From the NCBI RefSeq assembly GCF_001677475.2, contig NZ_CP015229.1: a DNA stretch of 64,000 nt; one strand, 5' to 3'. Source of the stretch: Escherichia coli. GTDB taxonomy: Bacteria > Pseudomonadota > Gammaproteobacteria > Enterobacterales > Enterobacteriaceae. Positions 1 to 47,703 of this stretch are shown in pieces (the first letter of the stretch is position 1; every line of letters starts with the position of its first letter). The notes below the pieces were generated by a model. It saw nothing but the letters and a program-made list of their open reading frames with translations. It made no database searches and was not told the origin of the DNA. A program made the position numbers and the translations under genes.

Positions 1-51
1 TTTAAAGGGAGAATGACTAAACACGCGCATACACCTCTTGAACTCATTCAT
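1..51 (-). CDS. mntS: Small manganese-responsive protein MntS, 5' part only (first 17 codons; gene runs off the window start)
   Basis: Reverse complement of 1-51 translates MNEFKRCMRVFSHSPFK, matching the N-terminus of MntS as I recall it; divergent from mntR. Confidence 0.6.
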   Translation of the reverse strand, partial: MNEFKRCMRVFSHSPFK

Positions 52-109
52 AAGACCTCCTGACTTGCTAATCCCGTCGATCCTTGAGGGATGATTGCAT
101 TACATACAG

Positions 110-147
110 ATATAGCACAGGCTATATTATATAGCTATTGCTAAAAC
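110..147. promoter_or_regulatory. Candidate MntR operator palindromes in the mntS/mntR divergent region
   Basis: atatagcacaggctatat (110-127) is an inverted repeat ATAGC-N4-GCTAT resembling the MntR box; a second atagctat palindrome lies at 131-138. Confidence 0.45.
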
Positions 148-236
148 GTTAATTTTTTGTACCTTCGCAACTCTGGTTTACAATGTGCGCACGAAATGAG
201 AACGCTATGTATGCGTCACCATAATGAGGAAGCACA

Positions 237-704
237 ATGAGTCGTCGCGCAGGTATGCCAACAGCAAAAAAAGTGACGCAGTTAGTGAACGTGGAAGAGC
301 ACGTTGAAGGGTTCCGCCAGGTCAGAGAGGCGCATCGGCGCGAGCTTATTGATGATTACGTTGAGCTGATTTCTGACTTGATCAGGGAAGTGGGGGAAGC
401 TCGTCAGGTGGACATGGCTGCTCGTTTGGGAGTTTCGCAACCGACGGTGGCTAAAATGCTTAAGCGGCTGGCAACCATGGGGCTGATTGAAATGATCCCC
501 TGGCGTGGCGTGTTTTTAACGGCAGAAGGAGAGAAGCTGGCGCAGGAAAGCCGCGAGCGACATCAGATAGTCGAAAATTTCTTGTTGGTGTTGGGCGTCA
601 GTCCGGAAATCGCCCGTCGCGACGCGGAAGGCATGGAGCACCATGTTAGTGAAGAGACGCTCGACGCTTTTCGTTTGTTTACCCAGAAACACGGTGCCAA
701 ATGA
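237..704 (+). CDS. mntR: Manganese-responsive transcriptional regulator MntR (DtxR family)
   Basis: 155-aa ORF; helix-turn-helix segment [12 protein letters not shown]; length and sequence match MntR; stop overlaps ybiR start (ATGA). Confidence 0.9.
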
Positions 705-1819
705 GCCTGCCTTTTTTACGCACGCTGCAAGGCGATCGTTTTTTTCAGTTATTAATTCTTGTTGGTATCGGATTAAGCTTTTTCGTGCCCTTTGCACCGA
801 AATCCTGGCCTGCTGCTATCGACTGGCACACCATCATCACCTTAAGCGGCCTGATGCTGCTGACCAAAGGTGTGGAGTTAAGCGGTTATTTTGATGTGCT
901 GGGGCGCAAAATGGTGCGCCGCTTTGCTACGGAGCGTCGGCTGGCGATGTTTATGGTGCTGGCGGCGGCGCTGCTTTCTACCTTTCTGACCAACGATGTC
1001 GCGCTGTTTATTGTTGTTCCGCTGACTATCACGCTAAAAAGACTGTGTGAGATCCCGGTTAATCGGCTGATTATTTTTGAGGCGCTGGCAGTCAACGCTG
1101 GTTCTCTACTGACGCCAATTGGCAACCCGCAAAATATTCTTATCTGGGGACGTTCTGGTCTTTCGTTTGCCGGATTTATTGCCCAAATGGCACCGCTGGC
1201 TGGCGCAATGATGCTGACGCTCCTGCTGTTGTGCTGGTGTTGTTTCCCTGGAAAGGCACTCCAATACCATACGGGGGTGCAAACACCGGAGTGGAAACCG
1301 CGGCTGGTGTGGAGTTGTCTGGGGCTGTATATCGTCTTTCTGACGGCGCTGGAGTTCAAACAAGAGCTGTGGGGACTGGTGATTGTGGCGGCAGGCTTTG
1401 CGCTGCTGGCACGTCGCGTGGTGCTCAGTGTGGACTGGACGCTGCTGCTGGTGTTTATGGCGATGTTTATCGACGTCCATTTACTAACCCAACTGCCAGC
1501 TTTGCAGGGGGTGTTAAGTAACGTGAGTCATTTATCCGAACCCGGATTATGGTTAACGGCGATTGGTTTATCGCAGGTGATCAGTAACGTGCCGAGTACC
1601 ATTTTGCTGCTCAATTATGTGCCACCGTCTTTATTACTGGCATGGGCGGTAAACGTAGGTGGCTTTGGTTTATTGCCCGGATCGCTGGCAAATTTGATTG
1701 CGCTACGGATGGCGAACGATCGCCGTATCTGGTGGCGTTTTCATCTTTATTCGATACCGATGCTGTTGTGGGCGGCGCTGGTAGGATACGTTGTGTTAGT
1801 TATGTTCCCGGTAGTGTAA
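701..1819 (+). CDS. ybiR: Putative anion permease YbiR (ArsB/NhaD superfamily), multi-pass membrane protein
   Basis: 372-aa highly hydrophobic ORF; synteny after mntR; start overlaps mntR stop. Confidence 0.85.
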
Positions 1820-1831
1820 GAGCCGACAAAT

Positions 1832-1862
1832 AAAAAAGGCGGATTATGAGTCCGCCTTTTGC
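1832..1862. terminator. Bidirectional rho-independent terminator between ybiR and ldtB
   Basis: aaaaaaggcggattatgagtccgccttttgc: GC stem ggcgga/tccgcc flanked by an A-run and a T-run. Confidence 0.7.
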
Positions 1863-1877
1863 TTTAAGTTTTGAAGA

Positions 1878-2798
1878 TTAATTCAGACGAACCGGCATCC
1901 CGGAGCGGTTTTTAATCGCTTCATCAAGAACAACCTGGTCAACATCTGGCTGACCGGTCACTGTCTGCACGCTCTTCGTCAGGGTAATTGGCACAATTTC
2001 CTGACCTTCAAACTGAGCTTCGGTGGTAGACAGCGGGTTATGGACTTCAATGTAACGGCTGCCGTCTGGCTCGGTGGTCGCTTTTACCGGCTCATCAATA
2101 AACTGTACGCGGGTACCGACCGGTACTTTCTCGAACAGGAATTTGATGTCTTCGTTACGCAGACGCACACAACCATGACTTACACGCAGGCCGATACCGA
2201 AGTTGGCGTTGGTGCCATGGATAGCGTACAGGCGACCGATGTAGAGTGCATACAGCCCCATCGGGTTATCCGGACCTGCCGGAACGACAGCCGGAAGCGG
2301 TTCGCCCGCAGCGCGGTACTCTGCGTGCATTTTGGCGGTCGGCGTCCAGGTCGGGCCTGCTTTCTTACGCTCAACTTTGGTGGTCCAGTTGATAGGCGTA
2401 TCTTTGCCTAACTGACCAATGCCGATCGGCAGCACGATAACGGTGTTGGTCCCTTTCGGATAGTAATACAGACGCATCTCTGCACTGTTAATGACGATGC
2501 CTTCATGAACGGTATCCGGCAGGATCAGCTGCTGCGGAATGTTCAGTACAGTACCGCCTTTCGGCAGGAAGGTATCCACACCCGGGTTCGCTTCCATCAT
2601 ATTGGAAAGCCCCATCTGGTACTCGGCGGCAAAATACTCCAGCGGCTGAGTGTTACCTTCAGGAATAGTGATCACCTGATTCTGACCAACCAGGCGACTC
2701 CCGTCGGTTGGCAGAGGATAAGTTACCGCAGAGGCGGTACTGCAAAAGCCGACAACAGCGAAGGCCGCTGCGAATAATGTTTTCAATTTCATATTCAT
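1878..2798 (-). CDS. ldtB: L,D-transpeptidase LdtB (YbiS), periplasmic, YkuD domain
   Basis: 306-aa ORF with signal peptide [24 protein letters not shown] and catalytic-region motif SHGCVRL. Confidence 0.88.
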
Positions 2799-3016
2799 GT
2801 TAAGCGAGATTTTGTGCCTGGCAGGCCATTGGGTTGAGAATATTAGAGTATTGGAAGCGCATTATAAGTTCATTCCAGCTCACAGTGAAATCAGATGTGT
2901 ACGAAATCACATTTTTTGCCTTTGGCTTGAGTGTAGACCTTAAGCGAGGAGCAGGATCTTCTTTCAGACTTATGGCATAATGCGCGGTTTGTCATATCTC
3001 TTTTCAGGATACGCCT

Positions 3017-4609
3017 GTGTTAGTTTCCAGTAACGTCACCATGCAGTTCGGCAGTAAGCCGTTGTTTGAAAACATTTCCGTCAAATTTGGCGGCGGCAAC
3101 CGTTACGGCCTGATTGGCGCGAACGGTAGTGGTAAATCCACCTTTATGAAGATCCTCGGCGGCGACCTTGAGCCGACGCTGGGTAACGTTTCCCTCGATC
3201 CCAACGAGCGCATTGGTAAGCTGCGTCAGGATCAGTTTGCCTTTGAAGAGTTCACTGTGCTGGATACGGTGATCATGGGGCATAAAGAGTTGTGGGAAGT
3301 GAAGCAGGAGCGTGACCGCATCTATGCTTTGCCGGAAATGAGTGAAGAAGACGGCTATAAAGTGGCCGATCTGGAAGTGAAATACGGCGAAATGGACGGT
3401 TACTCTGCGGAAGCTCGCGCCGGTGAACTGTTGCTTGGCGTGGGAATTCCAGTGGAACAACACTACGGCCCGATGAGTGAAGTTGCTCCTGGCTGGAAGC
3501 TGCGTGTGCTGCTGGCGCAGGCGCTGTTTGCTGATCCAGACATTCTCCTGCTCGACGAACCGACCAACAACCTCGACATCGACACCATTCGCTGGCTGGA
3601 ACAGGTGCTGAACGAGCGTGACAGCACCATGATCATCATCTCGCACGACCGTCACTTCCTTAACATGGTTTGTACCCACATGGCGGATCTGGATTACGGC
3701 GAGCTGCGCGTTTATCCAGGTAACTACGATGAGTACATGACGGCGGCGACCCAGGCGCGTGAGCGTCTGCTGGCTGATAACGCCAAGAAGAAAGCGCAGA
3801 TTGCTGAGCTGCAATCTTTCGTTAGCCGCTTTAGTGCCAACGCCTCGAAATCTCGCCAGGCAACTTCGCGCGCGCGCCAGATTGATAAAATCAAACTGGA
3901 AGAGGTGAAAGCCTCCAGCCGTCAGAACCCGTTCATCCGTTTTGAGCAGGATAAGAAACTGTTCCGTAACGCGCTGGAAGTGGAAGGTCTGACCAAAGGG
4001 TTTGATAACGGTCCACTGTTTAAAAATCTCAACCTGCTGCTGGAAGTGGGTGAAAAACTGGCTGTACTGGGTACCAACGGCGTCGGTAAATCAACGCTGC
4101 TGAAAACGCTGGTGGGCGATCTGCAACCGGGCAGCGGCACCGTAAAATGGTCTGAGAACGCGCGCATTGGTTACTACGCCCAGGACCATGAATATGAGTT
4201 CGAAAATGATCTTACCGTGTTCGAATGGATGAGTCAGTGGAAGCAGGAAGGCGATGACGAGCAGGCGGTACGCAGCATTCTCGGTCGTTTACTGTTCAGC
4301 CAGGACGACATCAAAAAGCCAGCGAAAGTGCTTTCCGGTGGGGAGAAAGGGCGGATGCTGTTTGGTAAGTTAATGATGCAGAAGCCGAACATTCTGATCA
4401 TGGACGAACCGACCAACCACCTGGATATGGAATCCATCGAGTCACTGAACATGGCGCTGGAACTGTATCAGGGCACGCTGATCTTTGTTTCACACGACCG
4501 TGAGTTCGTAAGCTCCCTGGCGACCCGTATTCTGGAAATCACCCCGGAACGCGTGATCGACTTTAGCGGTAATTACGAAGATTATCTGCGTAGTAAAGGG
4601 ATCGAGTAA
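3017..4609 (+). CDS. ybiT: ABC-F family ATPase YbiT (two ABC cassettes, no transmembrane domain)
   Basis: 530-aa ORF with two Walker A motifs ([18 protein letters not shown]) and two LSGG signatures; GTG start at 3017. Confidence 0.88.
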
Positions 4610-4664
4610 GTTATTATCCGTCAGCCCGATACTGTCGGGGTGACGGCGGCTGATGACAAACGCA

Positions 4665-4760
4665 AGATTGCCTGATGCGCTATGCTTATCAGGCCTACGC
4701 AGTACCTGCAATATATTGAATCTGCAGGACTTTGTAGGCCGGATAAGGCGTTATGAACTG
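4665..4760. repeat. REP/BIME-like palindromic repeats downstream of ybiT
   Basis: gcctgatgcgctatgcttatcaggcctac and gtaggccggataaggcg match the E. coli REP consensus in opposite orientations. Confidence 0.55.
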
Positions 4761-4847
4761 CAGGCATTAACAAAGCGCATTTGTCAGCAATCTGAGTAAC
4801 GTCGAATCGATTTTCTTAATCCCACATCAATTCATTTCCATTAACTC

Positions 4848-6107
4848 TCAAACATCCATGCCCAGTGCGCGCTTACCGTGAATGTTCAGATCCTCCAGCG
4901 TAAAGCGGCCTTCCCAGTTTGCTTCATAATCTTCCCGCGGGAAGTCGCCAGGTGATGCGCCTTTTTCCAGCGCCATTTTGACTTTGTGTGCATAAGCCCG
5001 ATTTTTCTCGCACATTGGCGCAGCAGGGATATACATCACGTTGCCCCAACCCTGTTGATTGTCTACTGGCGCGACGGAGTGAATCACATCGCAGTGCCAC
5101 CAGACGGAATCCCCTGCTGTTATCGCGGGAATGGAAGTCAGCGCTTTAAGCAGTAGTGGATGCCATTTCTCTGAAATGGGCAGAACTTTGCCAGGTGCAA
5201 CCCCGCACAGTTCATCGTCCGGTACGTCATCCAGCAGCGGGCGCAATAAAACATACGCCATCGCTTCCGGGATAGGCACCACATGTAACAATCCCTGACC
5301 CGATAACATATCAGAGAGCGCCGTCCAGCCTTGAAACGTGCGGAACACCGAACATTTTGTAGTGTTATCTACCGTGTACTCTTCGACATCGGTCCGGTGT
5401 GCAGCATCCCAGGGATCGTAATCATCGAAATTACCATTAAACACATTGGCAAAAACGCGCTGATAAGCGGGTAATAACCACCGTTCCAGCGCACCAGAAT
5501 CGGTATGCGCGCCCAGGCCTTTAGATGTAGTACCTGGAGGGCGGCGGCGGATCCTGTCTGGATAAATCACACTGATATCAGGATTAAACCACTGTTTGCC
5601 GTTGCTTTCAGACGTCCACAGTCGGTTTAGAAAAGATTGCACAGCAGCCATGTTTTCGCTCTGCCGCGCCTGCATCTGTGCTTGCGACCAGTAAATGGGA
5701 TAGATTTCGGGACGAGAAGCCTCCAGCGAGCCGAAAAAACTGTCGCCAGGGCCTTTATAAACATCATCAAAATGATTGATATCAAGATAATCGAGCATGG
5801 CACGATCCCACGCCATCGCCAGCTCGCGAGGGAAATGGCCTTTTATGACTGCACAGCCGCGACGTTTAATTTCATTGCGAGTGGCATCGCTTACTGTACC
5901 TGCGGCAATATCACTATAAGAAACTTCCGGCCAAACCGGCAGCCCTTGCGCTTTTAGGGCATCGATTTCAGCAACACGCGTTTCGATTTTTGCAGAGAGT
6001 GTATCGAAAACCTGTTGCACATCACCGAGCTGTTCTCGCAGCACAGCTTTCATCTCTCGGATAGCCGCTTTCGCATCTGTGGGCAGCGTCTCACAGGAAA
6101 AAGTCAT
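4848..6107 (-). CDS. ybiU: DUF1479-family protein YbiU
   Basis: 419-aa ORF; synteny between ybiT and ybiV; sequence recognised as YbiU. Confidence 0.8.
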   Translation of the reverse strand: MTFSCETLPTDAKAAIREMKAVLREQLGDVQQVFDTLSAKIETRVAEIDALKAQGLPVWPEVSYSDIAAGTVSDATRNEIKRRGCAVIKGHFPRELAMAWDRAMLDYLDINHFDDVYKGPGDSFFGSLEASRPEIYPIYWSQAQMQARQSENMAAVQSFLNRLWTSESNGKQWFNPDISVIYPDRIRRRPPGTTSKGLGAHTDSGALERWLLPAYQRVFANVFNGNFDDYDPWDAAHRTDVEEYTVDNTTKCSVFRTFQGWTALSDMLSGQGLLHVVPIPEAMAYVLLRPLLDDVPDDELCGVAPGKVLPISEKWHPLLLKALTSIPAITAGDSVWWHCDVIHSVAPVDNQQGWGNVMYIPAAPMCEKNRAYAHKVKMALEKGASPGDFPREDYEANWEGRFTLEDLNIHGKRALGMDV

Positions 6108-6211
6108 ATCAACCTCGCCTCTTTCATTCGAAATTAAAATGATTACGATTGATACATTAAGTTAAAAATAAGTTAACGCAAGATAAAAATCTTGAGTCAG
6201 TGCACAAAGCG

Positions 6212-6250
6212 AGCAAAAAGGAGAGAGGCCGAAGTGGTCACTTCGGCCAG
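6212..6250 (-). terminator. Rho-independent terminator downstream of ybiV
   Basis: Perfect 10-bp inverted repeat ggccgaagtg/cacttcggcc (6227-6248), followed on the minus strand by a T-rich run. Confidence 0.55.
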
Positions 6251-6258
6251 GGGGAAGA

Positions 6259-7074
6259 TCAACTATTGAAAGGAGCGATATTATCCAGCACCGCCTGAAT
6301 CACATTCAGCGCGCCTTCATGATTATTATCATCGGTAGCGTAACGGGCGATTTGTTTAATGTTTTCCGCAGCATTGCCCATCGCAAAGGAATAACGCGCC
6401 ATTTTCAGCATCTCCGCATCGTTACCGCTGTCGCCAATCGCTACCACATTTTGCGGTGACAGATCCCAGCGTTTCAGTAACCGCGAAATACCGTTTGCTT
6501 TATGTAGACCGGGAATAATCAGGTCGATAAAGCCAAAACCACTGGTAACGGGTTTCATAATGCCATCCAGCGCTATGTGCAGTTTGTCGATCACTAACGG
6601 GATTTGTTCATCCGGCAGGTTGAGCGAAAACTTGAACAGTACGTCGTCAATCTCCTGATAATCTTTTACAGGTTTCAGGCGATGGTAGTGTTTTGCCATC
6701 AGTGCGACGAATGCTTCGGGGGCGTTTTCGCTGACATATGCACTTTGCAGACCGCAGGCGACAAAATTGAGTTGCTTATCTTTTAGCAACTCGCCAATAA
6801 CAATCCGCGATTCATGTCGGGTCAGTTCGCCGTGGAACAACTGCTTGCCATGTTCGTAAACCAGTGCGCCGTTTTCCGCGACAAAAGAGATCTCATCCTT
6901 TAGCTCAGGAAAGAACGAAATAAGCTGGTAATACTGATTACCGCTGGCGACAACGAACTTAATGCCGCGCTTTTTCAGTTCCTGATATTGCGCCATAAAA
7001 CGTGGTTGGTTGTACGTTTTGGCGTCGTTAAGAAAAGTACCGTCCATGTCTGTGACGATAACTTTTACGCTCAT
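6259..7074 (-). CDS. ybiV: HAD-superfamily Cof-type sugar phosphatase YbiV
   Basis: 271-aa ORF with N-terminal HAD motif DMDGTFL and C-terminal GDSGNDAEM motif. Confidence 0.88.
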
Positions 7075-7219
7075 AGGTGTGCTCCTGGCTCGAAAATGAA
7101 ACCGTAACAGTGTAATAACAATGTGACGCAGAGCACAAATTATATTTCGAATGAAAGTAAGGATGAAATTGATGATGTGAATGATTTAGCCCGGCGACGC
7201 CGCCGCCGGGCTGAGGAGA

Positions 7220-9652
7220 TTACAGCATATGTTCAGTACGGGCGATGATATCGTCCTGTGCGTCTGGAGAGAGCGCGGTGAAGAAGGCGGAATAGCCCGC
7301 GACACGCACTACCAGATCGCGGTACTGATCCGGATGTTTTTTCGCTTCCAGCAGCGTTTCGCGGGAAACGATGTTGTACTGAATATGCCAGCCTTTATGC
7401 ACCTCGAAGAAGGTGCGCAGCAGGATCATCAGTTTCTGCTTGTCAGATTCGTTCTCCAGTGTTGCTGGATTCAGTTTCTGGTTGAGCAACACGCCGCCGA
7501 GAATCGCTGCCGTAGGCAGTTTACCCACCGAGCCAATGACCGCAGTAGGGCCAAGATGATCAGTACCGGAAGCCGGGCTTGCGCCTTCTGCCAGCGGGGT
7601 GTGGGCTTTACGCCCGTCCGGTGTTGCCATAGTCTGCGCGCCAAACGGTACGTTAGCGGAGATAGACGACGTACCCGCGTAATAGTTGCCGCCAACCGGA
7701 CCACGACCGTAGCGCGGATTATGGTACTGTTTCAGTTCGTCGATATAGGTCTGATAAGCGCGAGCCAGCAGCGTATCGACGGTATCATCGTCGTTGCCGT
7801 ACTTCGGCGCACCGTTAATCAGCCGCTGACGCAGCTGCTCGTGCGTCAGACCATCGAAGTCATCCGCCAGTGCGGCAGCCAGCTGTTGCTGACCAATCGC
7901 GCCCTGTTCAAATACCAGTTTCTTCACTGCCGCCAGGCTGTTGCCGAGGTTGGCAATGCCGACCTGCAGGCCAGAAACCCAGTCATATTTCGCGCCGCCT
8001 TGCTTGATACTTTTCGCTCGCTCAATGCAGTCATCCACCAGCGCCGAGCAGAGAATATCGTGTACGTTCTCTTCCAGCATGGTGTCGACGACATATTCAA
8101 TTTCGATTGATTTGCGGGTGTAGTAACGGATTTGCATATCCCACGCGTCCATTACTTCATCGAAATTGTTAAAGTTACCCGCTGACAACGCTTTTTCTTG
8201 TGGCAGGAACACTTTGCCGCTGGTGGCATCACGACCGCCTTCCAGCGCCGCCAGCATCACGCGGGCGAAGTTGATAAAGCTCATGCCGGTACAGCGATAG
8301 CCCCATTTGCCACCGACGGCGGTTTCGATACAACCAATCGCTGCATAGTCGTAAGCGTCCTGCGGTTCAATACCGAGTTTAATAAATTCCGGGATCACGA
8401 TTTCGTCGTTGTTGAACGCCGGCATCCCGAAGCCGCAACGGATCACCTGTACGCAGGCGTCGAGGAAATCGTTGCTCATTCCCGCGTGGTAACGCACGCT
8501 GAGGTTAGGCTGAGTGGAACGCAGGCGACCGCAGGATTCGAGGATCGCGTAAGAAAGTGGATTCACCGCGTCCATCGGTTGACCATCAACCAGATTTTGC
8601 CCGCCAATGGTGACGTTCTGATACAGCGGACTTCCCGCAGAGGCTTTTGAGTGCGAGCCGGAGCGGATTTTGTTCACTTCCAGCAGTTTCAACCAGCAGC
8701 TATGCAGCATCTCGATGGCGTGTTCACGATCCAGTATCTGGTTCAGTTCAACGTCGCGGCGATAGTACGGGTAGAGATACTGGTCCATACGACCAAACGA
8801 TACTGAGTGACCGTTAGATTCGATCTGCAAAATCAACTGGATGAAGTAGCACAGTTGCAGCGCCTGCCAGAAAGTCTGCGGCGGCTGGTGGGCGATAAGA
8901 TCGCAGTTTTCTGCTATCGCCAGCAGTTCATCGCGACGGCTTTCGCGGGTTTCAGTGGCTGCCATTTCACGCGCCAGGGCAGCGAAACGTTCAATGTGTT
9001 CACTGACTGCCACCAGCACGATATCAATCGCTTTCAGGAACTGCTCGCCGTGCAAATCTTCCAGCACCGTCAGGTTGATGCGCGAGCGACGTTCCGCTAC
9101 TTTCTCGCGCAGACCATCAAGACCTTTTTCCAGCAGCAGCGGGAAATTCACCGCCAGGTGCGCATCGCCGGAGGTCATATTGCCTTCCGCTTTAATGATT
9201 CCGGTCGCCAGCAGACCTTTTTGCTCATCGGTAAACATGCCGTAGCAGCGATCCTGTACCGTCTGACCGCGCCACCACGGGCACACTTCATGCAGAACAC
9301 GTTTGTTCTCTTCGCTCACCGCAAAACCTGCGCCGGGACGATCTGCCAGATCATCAATCTCTTTTTCGATCCAGGAGACGGTATATTCCGGGAAGATTGG
9401 CGCGGCGCGAACTTCGCTTGCCTGGTTGCCAATGATCAACTCATCGTGTTTGATCCAGATGGTGCGATTCGTCAGGTGATGTGCCAGCGCCAGCGCGCGA
9501 CGTACCGGGATCGGCTTATCGAGATGTTGTTGATACATCTCGGTATAGTGCTGCGCGCGCTCGGTACAAACCGGCGGTTTCACAATATGTACCAGCGCAT
9601 TTTTGTGCGCTTTAATGCGGTCGCTGAGCGTGTCCAGTTTCAGTGTGGTCAT
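7220..9652 (-). CDS. ybiW: Glycyl radical enzyme, pyruvate formate-lyase homologue YbiW (PflF)
   Basis: 810-aa ORF with C-terminal glycyl-radical signature RVAGYSAFF; adjacent to its activase. Confidence 0.88.
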   Translation of the reverse strand: MTTLKLDTLSDRIKAHKNALVHIVKPPVCTERAQHYTEMYQQHLDKPIPVRRALALAHHLTNRTIWIKHDELIIGNQASEVRAAPIFPEYTVSWIEKEIDDLADRPGAGFAVSEENKRVLHEVCPWWRGQTVQDRCYGMFTDEQKGLLATGIIKAEGNMTSGDAHLAVNFPLLLEKGLDGLREKVAERRSRINLTVLEDLHGEQFLKAIDIVLVAVSEHIERFAALAREMAATETRESRRDELLAIAENCDLIAHQPPQTFWQALQLCYFIQLILQIESNGHSVSFGRMDQYLYPYYRRDVELNQILDREHAIEMLHSCWLKLLEVNKIRSGSHSKASAGSPLYQNVTIGGQNLVDGQPMDAVNPLSYAILESCGRLRSTQPNLSVRYHAGMSNDFLDACVQVIRCGFGMPAFNNDEIVIPEFIKLGIEPQDAYDYAAIGCIETAVGGKWGYRCTGMSFINFARVMLAALEGGRDATSGKVFLPQEKALSAGNFNNFDEVMDAWDMQIRYYTRKSIEIEYVVDTMLEENVHDILCSALVDDCIERAKSIKQGGAKYDWVSGLQVGIANLGNSLAAVKKLVFEQGAIGQQQLAAALADDFDGLTHEQLRQRLINGAPKYGNDDDTVDTLLARAYQTYIDELKQYHNPRYGRGPVGGNYYAGTSSISANVPFGAQTMATPDGRKAHTPLAEGASPASGTDHLGPTAVIGSVGKLPTAAILGGVLLNQKLNPATLENESDKQKLMILLRTFFEVHKGWHIQYNIVSRETLLEAKKHPDQYRDLVVRVAGYSAFFTALSPDAQDDIIARTEHML

Positions 9653-9657
9653 GGTTG

Positions 9658-10557
9658 TTATCCTCGTAAGGTCGCGGTTAACCCTTTCTGGCAGGCATAC
9701 TGCTGGGCAAAGTCGAGCAGTTCTGGCGCATCAAGCGGTTTTTCCGGGGCGTCATAGGGCAGATTAAGTAAGTGATATTTGTTGATGCCCAGCGTGTGGT
9801 AGGGCAGGAAATGAATTTCACCAACGTGCAGCTCGTCGGCGGCAAAATCGGTAATGGCTTTTACAGAGGTTTCGTCGGCATTAAAGCCCTGAATCAGCGG
9901 CACGCGGATAATGATTTTTTTGCCCGCTGCGGCGAGTTTTTTCAGGTTATCCAACACCCTGGCGGCGTTACCGTCGGTCCACTGTTTAAACGGCGCGTCG
10001 GCAACGTGTTTTAAATCGGCAAGAAACAGATCGATATAGGACAGAGAAGGGGCGATATATTTCCACGGCACATGCAGACAGGTTTCTACCGCAGTATGAA
10101 TGCCGGCCTCGTGGCTGGCTTGCAGTAGCGCTGTCGCCATTTCCGGCTGCATGAATGGTTCACCGCCAGAAAGTGTTAAGCCGCCGCCGCTGCGATCATA
10201 AAACGGTTTATCGCGCAGAACGGTCGCCATGATCTCCTCAACGCTTTTCACTTCACCACACACGGTTAACGCCTGTGTCGGGCAGCAGTCGGTTAACGCC
10301 GTCAGATGCTCCGGGGTTAACTTTTCCCGATGAATAAGCAAACCATTCAGCGCGCGCTCAATCACTTCCGGCGCGGTCTTAGCGCACAGCTCGCAGCCTT
10401 CCAGACACAGTCGTGGGTCATACAGCAGATCCTGCGTGCGGGCGCGGCTTTCCGGGTTCTGACACCAGCGGCAGCCCAGCGAACAGCCTTTAAGAAATAC
10501 GACCGTGCGGATACCGGGGCCATCATGGGTCGAGTAGCGCTGAATATTGAAAATCAT
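9658..10557 (-). CDS. ybiY: Glycyl-radical enzyme activating protein YbiY (PflE), radical SAM
   Basis: Radical-SAM CxxxCxxC motif (CSLGCRWC) plus extra Cys clusters; start chosen at MIFNIQRY (about 299 aa); an in-frame ATG 27 nt upstream (10584) is the alternative. Confidence 0.8.
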
Positions 10558-10687
10558 AGTTGCCTCTCTGTTTCGTTCAAACATTAAAATACTTTCGAAT
10601 GAAAGTTAGATTGATGTGCGTCAACTGTTCAGAGAGTTTTCCCGTGATAGTCTACATTCAGACAAAAAGTACATTTTGAGGATGGTT

Positions 10688-11350
10688 ATGGAACTGTATC
10701 TGGATACTTCAGACGTTGTTGCGGTGAAGGCGCTGTCACGTATTTTTCCGCTGGCGGGTGTGACCACTAACCCAAGCATTATCGCCGCGGGTAAAAAACC
10801 GCTGGAGGTTGTGCTTCCGGAACTTCATGAAGCGCTGGGCGGTCAGGGGCGTCTGTTTGCCCAGGTAATGGCTACCACTGCTGAAGGGATGGTGAATGAC
10901 GCACGTAAATTGCGTTCTATTATTGCGGATATCGTGGTGAAAGTTCCGGTGACCGCCGAGGGGCTGGCAGCTATTAAGATGTTAAAAGCGGAAGGGATTC
11001 CGACGCTGGGAACCGCGGTATATGGCGCGGCACAAGGGTTGATGTCGGCGCTGGCAGGTGCAGAATATGTTGCACCTTACGTTAATCGTATTGATGCTCA
11101 GGGTGGTAGCGGCATTCAGACTGTGACCGACTTACACCAGTTATTGAAAATGCATGCGCCGCAGGCGAAAGTGCTGGCAGCGAGTTTCAAAACCCCGCGT
11201 CAGGCACTGGACTGCTTACTGGCAGGATGTGAATCAATCACGCTGCCACTGGATGTGGCACAACAGATGATTAGCTATCCGGCGGTGGATGCCGCTGTGG
11301 CGAAGTTTGAGCAGGACTGGCAGGGAGCGTTTGACAGAACGTCGATTTAA
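10688..11350 (+). CDS. fsaA: Fructose-6-phosphate aldolase 1
   Basis: 220-aa product starting MELYLDTSD; transaldolase-like fold; internal ATG chosen over the ORF-track start at 10616. Confidence 0.88.
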
Positions 11351-11425
11351 CCGGACGTTCTGCATCCTCATAAATTGCTGATGACGTGGCGGAGTGCCGC
11401 GTCTTATCAGGCCTGGAGGTGGCAA

Positions 11426-12175
11426 TTACTGCCCGCACACTTCACACCCCGGATTGCGCATCAGTTTCATTTCACGAAACTGGCAGGTCATCGCATCGTA
11501 CATGACGATTTTCCCGCTGGCTGGTTTGCCATAACCTGCCAGCAGTTTGATTGCTTCCATTGCCTGCAACGAACCAATTACGCCGATTAACGGTGCCATC
11601 ACGCCTGCTTCTACGCAGGTTAACGCGTTCTCGCCAAACAAACGGCTAAGGCAGCGATAGCACGGTTCGTCGTCCTGATAAGTGAAGACAGTGATTTGCC
11701 CTTCCATACGAATTGCCGCGCCGGAAACCAGCGGCACCTTCGCGGCAAAACAGCCTGCGTTCAGTTGATTACGTACCGCAACGTTATCCGTACAGTCGAG
11801 CACCAGATCGTGTTTTGCAATCATCGCAGCAAGTTCAGCGTCATCCAGCAGCGCATTGACTGGCGTAATCGCGATATGTGGGTTGATCCGCGTCAGGGCG
11901 TCACGGGCGGATTCCACCTTCGGTTGCCCGACCGTGGCATCACTGTGCAGCGTCTGGCGTTGCAGATTCGAGAGCGAAACCGAGTCGAAGTCGAGCAGCG
12001 TCAGGTTGCCGACACCGGCGCTTGCCAGATACTGCGAAGCTGCGCAGCCGAGTCCACCGAGGCCGACGATCAGCACACGAGAATCTTTTAGCGCCTCCTG
12101 ACCGTCAAAATCAAAACCGCGCAGAATGATTTGCCGGTTGTAGCGCAGCATCTCCTGATCGCTGAGTTCCGCCAT
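11426..12175 (-). CDS. moeB: Molybdopterin-synthase adenylyltransferase MoeB
   Basis: 249-aa ORF with ThiF/MoeB nucleotide-binding motif GLGGLG and C-terminal CxxC pairs. Confidence 0.9.
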   Translation of the reverse strand: MAELSDQEMLRYNRQIILRGFDFDGQEALKDSRVLIVGLGGLGCAASQYLASAGVGNLTLLDFDSVSLSNLQRQTLHSDATVGQPKVESARDALTRINPHIAITPVNALLDDAELAAMIAKHDLVLDCTDNVAVRNQLNAGCFAAKVPLVSGAAIRMEGQITVFTYQDDEPCYRCLSRLFGENALTCVEAGVMAPLIGVIGSLQAMEAIKLLAGYGKPASGKIVMYDAMTCQFREMKLMRNPGCEVCGQ

Positions 12176-47592: not shown

Positions 47593-47617
47593 TCATTATA
47601 AGAATTTATGCACTATG

Positions 47618-47703
47618 TAGGCCGGATAAGGCGTCCACGCCGCATCCGGCACAGGCACCGTGCTGATGTCTGATGCGACGCTGGCGCGTCTTATCAGACC
47701 TAC
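47618..47703. repeat. REP/BIME palindromic repeat pair between artM and artJ
   Basis: gtaggccggataaggcgtccacgccgcatccggcac and gatgtctgatgcgacgctggcgcgtcttatcagacctac, both REP-consensus-like. Confidence 0.6.

Follow-up and report, generated by a model that had tools for sequence, protein, structure and literature searches.

The spacer between the genes ybiT and ybiU of Escherichia coli raises the question which kind of repeat lies downstream of these two genes, how far it extends and whether it is still complete. The DNA analysed here, called the window in the following, is a stretch of 64,000 nucleotides. In the window, the open reading frame 3017-4609 on the plus strand encodes the ABC-F family ATPase YbiT (NCBIfam PRK15064, 1064.6 bits in a profile search whose cut-off is 762), and the open reading frame 4848-6107 on the minus strand encodes the DUF1479 protein YbiU, which was named from matching DNA in complete E. 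coli genomes; Pfam PF07350 is recorded for a protein identical to it. A first-pass annotation had named both genes and had called the region between them convergent. The names are right, based on the PRK15064 profile for YbiT and the DUF1479 naming for YbiU, and the strands of the two reading frames show the convergent arrangement, with a spacer of 238 nt (4610-4847). The same annotation placed two REP-consensus-like palindromes in opposite orientation at 4665-4760 and read them as a BIME-type repeat.

The segment 4650-4795 is very probably one copy of the enterobacterial BIME-1 (RIP/RIB) element, with the mechanism typical of this family and with a loss of the Y arm that is specific to the lineage of the window. 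The ybiT-ybiU repeat is an element of an already known kind at a known locus. BIME-1 was defined as a single unit of one z1 and one y REP, the L linker between them being long, conserved and often provided with an IHF site (Ton-Hoang et al., PMC3333891), and the BIME-1, RIP and RIB literature (Gilson 1991; Boccard & Prentki 1993; Oppenheim 1993) is summarised in the same work. As REP references the three REP query sequences printed by Durrant et al. 2024 (PMC11208160) were used. The REP tail CTTATCMGGCCTAC was searched with at most one mismatch across the 64-kb window and compared with shuffles; it was found four times against 0.04 expected, an enrichment of about 100-fold, and a count of four was reached in 0 of 100 shuffles. 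Two of the four tails lie at 4685-4698 on the plus strand and at 4734-4747 on the minus strand, tail to tail, so the REP-like sequences are real at the place given for them and they do stand in opposite orientation. A REP consensus search, as had been proposed for this site, was run and returned a significant match: REP1 (4670-4699) is identical to 29 of the 30 positions of the published short Z REP GCCTGATGCGCTACGCTTATCAGGCCTACG (blastn-short, E = 3e-9 in a local database). The features of the unit are as follows (coordinates in the window).

About 4650-4795, no strand assigned: complete BIME-1 unit in its family-conserved extent, comprising left flank, Z REP, L linker, Y REP and right flank
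4650-4669, plus strand: left flanking motif CTGATGACAAACGCAAGATT, conserved in most of 94 copies and partly complementary to the right flank
4670-4698, plus strand: REP1, a short Z-type REP, GCCTGATGCGCTATGCTTATCAGGCCTAC, 29/30 against the published short Z REP
4688-4698, plus strand: exact copy of the natural target of IS621, ATCAGGCCTAC, with the CT core at 4695-4696
4691-4733, minus strand: match to Rfam RF02751, ES036 (CssrF) sRNA, covering the L linker and the Z REP tail at full model length
4699-4733, plus strand: L linker of 35 nt, with the conserved core TGCAATATATTGAAT at 4707-4721 and a short palindrome of its own (CCTGCA / TGCAGG)
4709-4721, minus strand: putative IHF-type core ATTCAATATATTG, one mismatch to WATCAANNNNTTR
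4734-4766, plus strand: REP2, an inverted Y-type REP of which only the GTAG-proximal 19 nt survive
4734-4752, plus strand: proximal half of REP2, Y-type, GTAGGCCGGATAAGGCGTT, with GTAG at 4734-4737
4753-4766, plus strand: degenerate distal arm of REP2, ATGAACTGCAGGCA, with TGAACTG (7 nt) in place of ACGCCGCAT (9 nt)
4767-4795, plus strand: right flanking motif TTAACAAAGCGCATTTGTCAGCAATCTGA, fitting the family consensus TGAACAAAGCGCACTTTGTCAGCAATCTGA if a 2-nt length difference is allowed

The outer limits of the unit were derived from an ungapped position-wise consensus of 87 non-orthologous copies, in which conservation climbs at about 4650 and drops past about 4795. In a global alignment the window is identical to this consensus in 131 of 153 columns, and the mismatches concentrate in the variable start of the L linker and in the distal arm of REP2. 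Both outer flanks fit the family consensus (left CTGATGACAAACGCAA.ATT, right T.AACAAAGCGCA(C)TTTGTCAGCAATCTGA), and as inverted repeat I4 the left flank (4651-4663) pairs with the right flank (4777-4789). The span of 4665-4760 proposed before covers the core of the element but misses the end of REP2 (about 4766) and the conserved flanks. Within these limits, one Z REP (GCCTGATG..., 4670-4698, plus strand) and one Y REP (...CCGGATAAGGCG, 4734-4752, opposite strand) are arranged in inverse orientation. Read on the plus strand, REP1 is an iREP that ends in CTAC (4695-4698), and the minus strand reads GTAG followed by the hairpin, which folds at -13.2 kcal/mol with a z-score of -3.5 and is a palindrome by this measure. 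The surviving part of REP2 (4734-4752) agrees in 19 of 19 nt with the published Y REP, of which it covers positions 17-35 (blastn-short). Between the two REPs the L linker folds by itself (-9.8 kcal/mol, z -2.9), and its core TGCAATATATTGAAT occurs exactly once in the 64-kb window. The IHF consensus WATCAANNNNTTR at up to one mismatch is matched 69 times in the window, about once per kb, and is not significant alone; the linker is therefore assigned an IHF site through its family membership and not through the motif. The entire element folds at -45.2 kcal/mol on the plus strand and -41.7 kcal/mol on the minus strand (z about -5.5), compared with -50.8 kcal/mol on both strands for the orthologous composite hairpin of K-12. 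The BIME forms one unit between the convergent genes and lies entirely outside of them, between the stop codon of ybiT (4609) and that of ybiU (4848). The BIME-type reading is thus supported by the Z REP, the long L linker with its IHF-type core and the inverted Y REP, and the observation that led to it is partly confirmed; it is refined in that the repeat is a BIME-1 and not a bare REP pair, that REP2 is truncated and that the unit is longer than was given.

Membership in a dispersed family was followed by an exact-pattern scan for CCTAC-N9-GCAATATATTGAAT-N11-TGTAGG over a species-representative genome collection. This composite was found in 83 further stretches with identical spacing to both REP tails, 14 of them in E. 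albertii, 13 in E. whittamii and 10 in Pseudocitrobacter faecalis, the remainder in other Escherichia and Pseudocitrobacter genomes and on a few obviously contaminated MAG contigs. Together with further copies these stretches form a set of 94 copies, whose common architecture is ACTGATGACAAACGCAAAATT, followed by GCCTGATGCGCTACGCTTATCAGGCCTAC, by a variable segment of 8-9 nt with TGCAATATATTGAATTTGCA and TTTT, by GTAGGCCGGATAAGGCGTT.ACGCCGCATCCGGCA and finally by TGAACAAAGCGCACTTTGTCAGCAATCTGA. In 93 of the 94 L-containing copies the linker is preceded by a short 29-nt Z REP and followed by a Y REP, and the flanks are shared; the sole exception is the K-12 yaaX-yaaA copy (locus L002, 566-672), where the L linker is combined with a long Z REP. 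The BIME of the K-12 phr-dtpD spacer (locus L097, 75-190) also pairs the L linker with a long Z REP. Of 5,426 complete E. coli genomes, 5,425 contain the 101-nt core of the element at 40 or more places each by blastn, a figure that is to be read as a lower bound of at least 40 in 4,054 records. BIME-1 is described as occurring in single units. In Escherichia sp. MOD1-EC7003 (locus L092, about 420-1000) five BIME-1 units stand in tandem, with a period of 115 nt between adjacent units and one wider gap, and loci L071 and L086 each hold two nearby units; these arrangements are at odds with the textbook statement of single units.

The naming of the Z-type REPs needs some care, as the labels conflict in the literature: the long Z REP at rayT is called Z2 in PMC2817692 and PMC3333891 and z1 in PMC3479197. 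Reading of the K-12 sequence showed that rayT is flanked by Y REPs and long 36-nt Z REPs, an arrangement of the BIME-2 type that contrasts with the present element. Because 93 of 94 copies combine the L linker with the short Z REP, and in line with the definition of BIME-1, we take the short Z REP as z1 and the ybiT-ybiU element as a canonical BIME-1. It shares with the BIME-1 (RIP/RIB) elements of E. coli the inverse, tail-to-tail Z and Y REPs, the long L linker with an IHF-type core, the conserved outer flanks, the occurrence as a single unit and the extragenic position at the 3' ends of transcription units; it differs in the Y REP of the window allele, whose distal arm has been exchanged for other bases and which no longer forms its hairpin, and its IHF site is a predicted one. 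BIME-2 elements contain REPs from the same superfamily, but they are characterised by a long Z REP, short linkers, tandem amplification and gyrase binding, and the ybiT-ybiU element has none of these four; BIME-2 lines up Y and long-Z REPs in tandem over short linkers, and the element has one unit only, made of a short Z REP, a Y REP and a long linker. The window holds an example of the other type at 47617-47703, a second BIME whose Y REP agrees in 33 of 35 and whose long Z REP agrees in 33 of 34 positions; its REPs stand head to head, 18 nt apart, in a BIME-2-like organisation. With REPINs, which Bertels and Rainey are said to have described as hairpin-forming REP doublets mobilised by RAYTs, the element has in common that two inverted REPs form one long hairpin and that the family is tied to a single RAYT gene. 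It differs from them in that the linker of the E. coli BIME-1 is long, conserved and protein-binding, and mobility of the ybiT-ybiU copy is putative. The K-12 RefSeq record carries no repeat features at the ybiT-ybiU locus, nor at 5,000-6,600, where presumably a RIP element had been annotated.

The second REP of the window is where the copy departs from its relatives. K-12 and SMS-3-5 read GGCGTT-AACGCCGCATCAGGC in the alignment, whereas the window reads GGCGTT-ATGAACTGCAGGC; the lesion consists of the 9 nt ACGCCGCAT changed to the 7 nt TGAACTG, and the rest of the spacer is identical to that of SMS-3-5. The REP2 segment alone folds at -3.8 kcal/mol (z +0.4) and forms no hairpin of its own, compared with -15.1 kcal/mol (z -3.5) for the K-12 orthologue, so the description as two palindromes holds for the ancestral allele and does not hold for the allele of the window. 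On the plus strand the Y segment reaches -6.2 kcal/mol, where the median of the family is -20.9, and ranks among the weakest few of the 94 copies. The allele with TGAACTG was found in 0 of 5,426 complete E. coli genomes, with no match beyond 4753 among the matches listed (blastn with the 101-nt core). The best complete E. coli genomes are only 97.9% identical to positions 1-12000 of the window, which means that the lineage of the window is not represented among the 5,426 complete genomes; draft assemblies share its ybiU and its spacer. An exact look-up of the YbiU protein led to 24 contigs, and in two representative NCBI drafts, GCA_019141245.1 and GCA_018683435.1, the spacer matches that of the window at every base. 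A sequencing error as cause of the lesion was rejected, as the two independent NCBI assemblies have the same sequence, and the allele is therefore inherited and no artefact.

Concerning the origin of the new bases, TGAACTG together with the following CAGG gives TGAACTGCAGG, which repeats the linker arm TGAATCTGCAGG (4718-4729) minus one base; this arm, TGAA(T)CTGCAGG, lies 34 nt upstream of the new bases. The probability of such a match by chance was estimated by hand to be of the order of 0.005. This resemblance hints at a replacement of the distal arm by a template switch within the element. TnpA-REP was reported to need GTAG together with an intact bulged REP hairpin and to cleave at the iREP or the linker (PMC3333891). 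Given this requirement and the missing Y hairpin, the RAYT/TnpA-REP binding site on the plus strand of the window allele is predicted to be lost; the minus strand, with GTAG and the Z hairpin, should still offer such a site. What the window allele has kept is the hairpin of the Z REP, the L linker and the long hairpin of the whole composite. The allele is a natural one-armed BIME-1 and a possible control for experiments on RAYT, IHF or mRNA stability.

Orthologous copies allow the element to be placed in time. The BIME in the ybiT-ybiU spacer of K-12 MG1655 (NC_000913.3, about 857,598-857,745; locus L001, 5599-5746) agrees with that of the window in position, flanks, linker and Z REP and is nearly identical outside of the lesion, while its Y REP is intact (GTAGGCCGGATAAGGCGTTAACGCCGCATCAGGC, -15.1 kcal/mol) and the spacer of the window is 2 nt shorter; intact orthologous copies are found in K-12 and SMS-3-5. 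Escherichia sp. E1V33 (L076) has an orthologous copy whose Y REP has lost 18 nt internally, between GCCG repeats. In E. albertii (L010, 5823-8430) and E. coli M1/5 (L006) there is no ybiU, and after ybiT come an alternative allele of the hairpin downstream of this gene, a diverged BIME-1 and then ybiV; the E. albertii copy lies downstream of ybiT at about 6680-6800 of L010. Another E. albertii BIME, at 9661 of L010, was considered as orthologue and rejected, since it lies in a different spacer, similar though its linker is. Because copies follow ybiT in E1V33, E. albertii and M1/5, the BIME predates the split of E. coli and E. albertii.

The locus is a hotspot of rearrangement, with IS621 insertions, deletions and presence or absence of ybiU. 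IS621 is a bridge-RNA recombinase element, and it is found in the ybiT-ybiU spacer of PK12, O104:H4 2009EL-2071 and 401651, inserted at the CT core of REP1. Both junctions were read in PK12 (...ATCAGGC-CT-[IS621]-CT-ACGCAG...) and correspond to the natural target ATCAGGCCTAC with its CT core; this target was reported to be located in REPs (PMC11208160). In O157:H7 F7386 (L004) a 73-nt deletion joins the 5' arm of REP1 to the distal arm of REP2 and leaves one hybrid REP, and the polymorphic presence or absence of ybiU directly abuts the BIME. According to a rough typing of 30 evenly spaced records of complete genomes, the spacer is full in 13, carries the 73-nt deletion in 2, breaks at the CT core in 6 and lacks ybiU in 6. 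Differences between strains in this spacer, i.e., IS621, the 73-nt deletion, the loss of a REP arm and ybiU being there or not, represent normal REP-associated plasticity.

Several other readings of the same DNA have to be weighed against a BIME-1 copy. That the palindromes arose by chance and are unrelated to the REP family has a negligible probability and is refuted by the enrichment of the REP tail, which no shuffle reproduced, by the match of REP1 to its reference and by the 83 further composite stretches. A bidirectional intrinsic (Rho-independent) terminator serving both ybiT and ybiU would fit the position between convergent genes and the strong fold on both strands; a scan of 4500-4950, however, found no intrinsic terminator, i.e., no GC-rich stem-loop followed by a T-run, on either strand, and as a member of a dispersed repeat family the sequence is not confined to this locus, which makes this explanation highly improbable. 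Just as improbable is a strong DNA gyrase site of the BIME-2 type. The element does contain a Y-type REP, the type that gyrase prefers to cleave in BIME-2 (PMC6379681), but it consists of one unit only, with the long L linker, instead of a tandem of Y and Z2 REPs with short linkers, and the hairpin of its Y REP is lost in the window. As the reported enrichment of gyrase concerns BIME-2 and not BIME-1 (PMC6379681), no gyrase role is proposed here.

That the minus strand carries an independent sRNA gene like ES036/CssrF at 4691-4733 is slightly less improbable than these, yet still very unlikely. Such a gene is suggested by the match to RF02751, which covers the 43-nt model in full with the minus-strand linker and Z REP tail and scores 41.6 bits, above the gathering score of 37.6 (E = 2e-7, covariance-model search). 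The founding ES036, however, was described by RNA-seq as a 43-nt RNA without a mapped start, for which the authors suggest processing from a longer transcript or a 3'-UTR (Rau et al. 2015, PMC4676190). In K-12 the seed of the model falls, once the coordinate shift between K-12 genome versions is taken into account, on the L linker of the Y-L-Z BIME in the convergent phr-dtpD spacer; ES036 differs from the present element in originating from a BIME with a long Z REP. As the model consists of a BIME linker and a REP tail, any BIME-1 copy will match RF02751. Furthermore, neither a promoter consensus nor a promoter-like site was found on either strand in the scan of 4500-4950, and no ES transcript is listed between K-12 844,893 and 914,299, the interval that includes ybiT-ybiU (PMC4676190). 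For these reasons the match is not read as an sRNA gene, and in annotation the element should be labelled as BIME-1 (REP-IHF-REP) repeat despite the ES036 hit. Beyond correct annotation the significance of this assignment is small.

How the BIME-1 copy would act can be outlined from what is described for its family. The copy is a non-autonomous REP doublet that has been residing downstream of ybiT since before the divergence of E. coli and E. albertii. At the level of DNA, IHF is predicted to bind the L linker, at CAATATATTGAAT, and the REP that starts with GTAG at its 5' end would be a substrate of the REP-associated tyrosine transposase (RAYT/TnpA-REP), by which units are spread and reshaped. 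At the level of RNA, transcripts of ybiT and ybiU that read through are expected to have their 3' ends in either a REP hairpin or the long Z-L-Y one, because there is no intrinsic terminator on either strand. As in the family, such hairpins may block 3'-to-5' exonucleases, protect the upstream mRNA and attenuate transcription, and one other BIME apparently leaves a stable 43-nt linker fragment, namely ES036. For the ybiT-ybiU copy itself we infer IHF binding, an origin and remodelling by RAYT, mRNA protection and attenuation from this family behaviour. The tail of the Z REP, ATCAGGCCTAC, is a target of IS621, and in the lineage of the window the replacement of the distal arm has removed the Y hairpin and, as predicted, with it the RAYT site of the plus strand.

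A more far-reaching proposal is that the BIME-1 acts as a shared, IHF-modulated element that forms the 3' ends of ybiT and ybiU and insulates both genes, that it possibly releases a stable ES036-like RNA from the 3' UTR of ybiU, and that its Y arm was replaced by a template switch; as a whole we consider this proposal unlikely. If it were true, the template switch would make one strand of the unit unusable for RAYT, and the ybiU 3' end would be processed differently.

Apart from the repeat, the spacer holds a strong hairpin at 4618-4646 on the plus strand, 8 nt past the stop codon of ybiT (CCGTCAGCCCGA-TACTG-TCGGGGTGACGG), which folds at -21.2 kcal/mol (z -3.6) and has no T-run. It was considered as a part of the repeat family and rejected, since it is locus-specific according to the family consensus and a blastn-short comparison with the published REPs. 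Two alleles of this hairpin exist, a K-12-like one and one of the type found in GPEC403-625, M1/5 and E. albertii, and they are separated by four compensatory base-pair swaps, which suggests that the structure is under selection. The hairpin may be the actual determinant of the 3' end of ybiT, which would leave little RNA-level role to the BIME for this gene. Beyond ybiU, the minus strand at 6228-6249 holds a hairpin (GGCCGAAGTGACCACTTCGGCC) followed by a T-rich run, read by eye from the sequence, which looks like the intrinsic terminator of ybiV. Elsewhere in the window, at about 11385-11416, TGCTGATGAC...GCGTCTTATCAGGCCTGG contains an exact 17-nt match to the long Z REP and is possibly the degenerate remnant of a solo REP.
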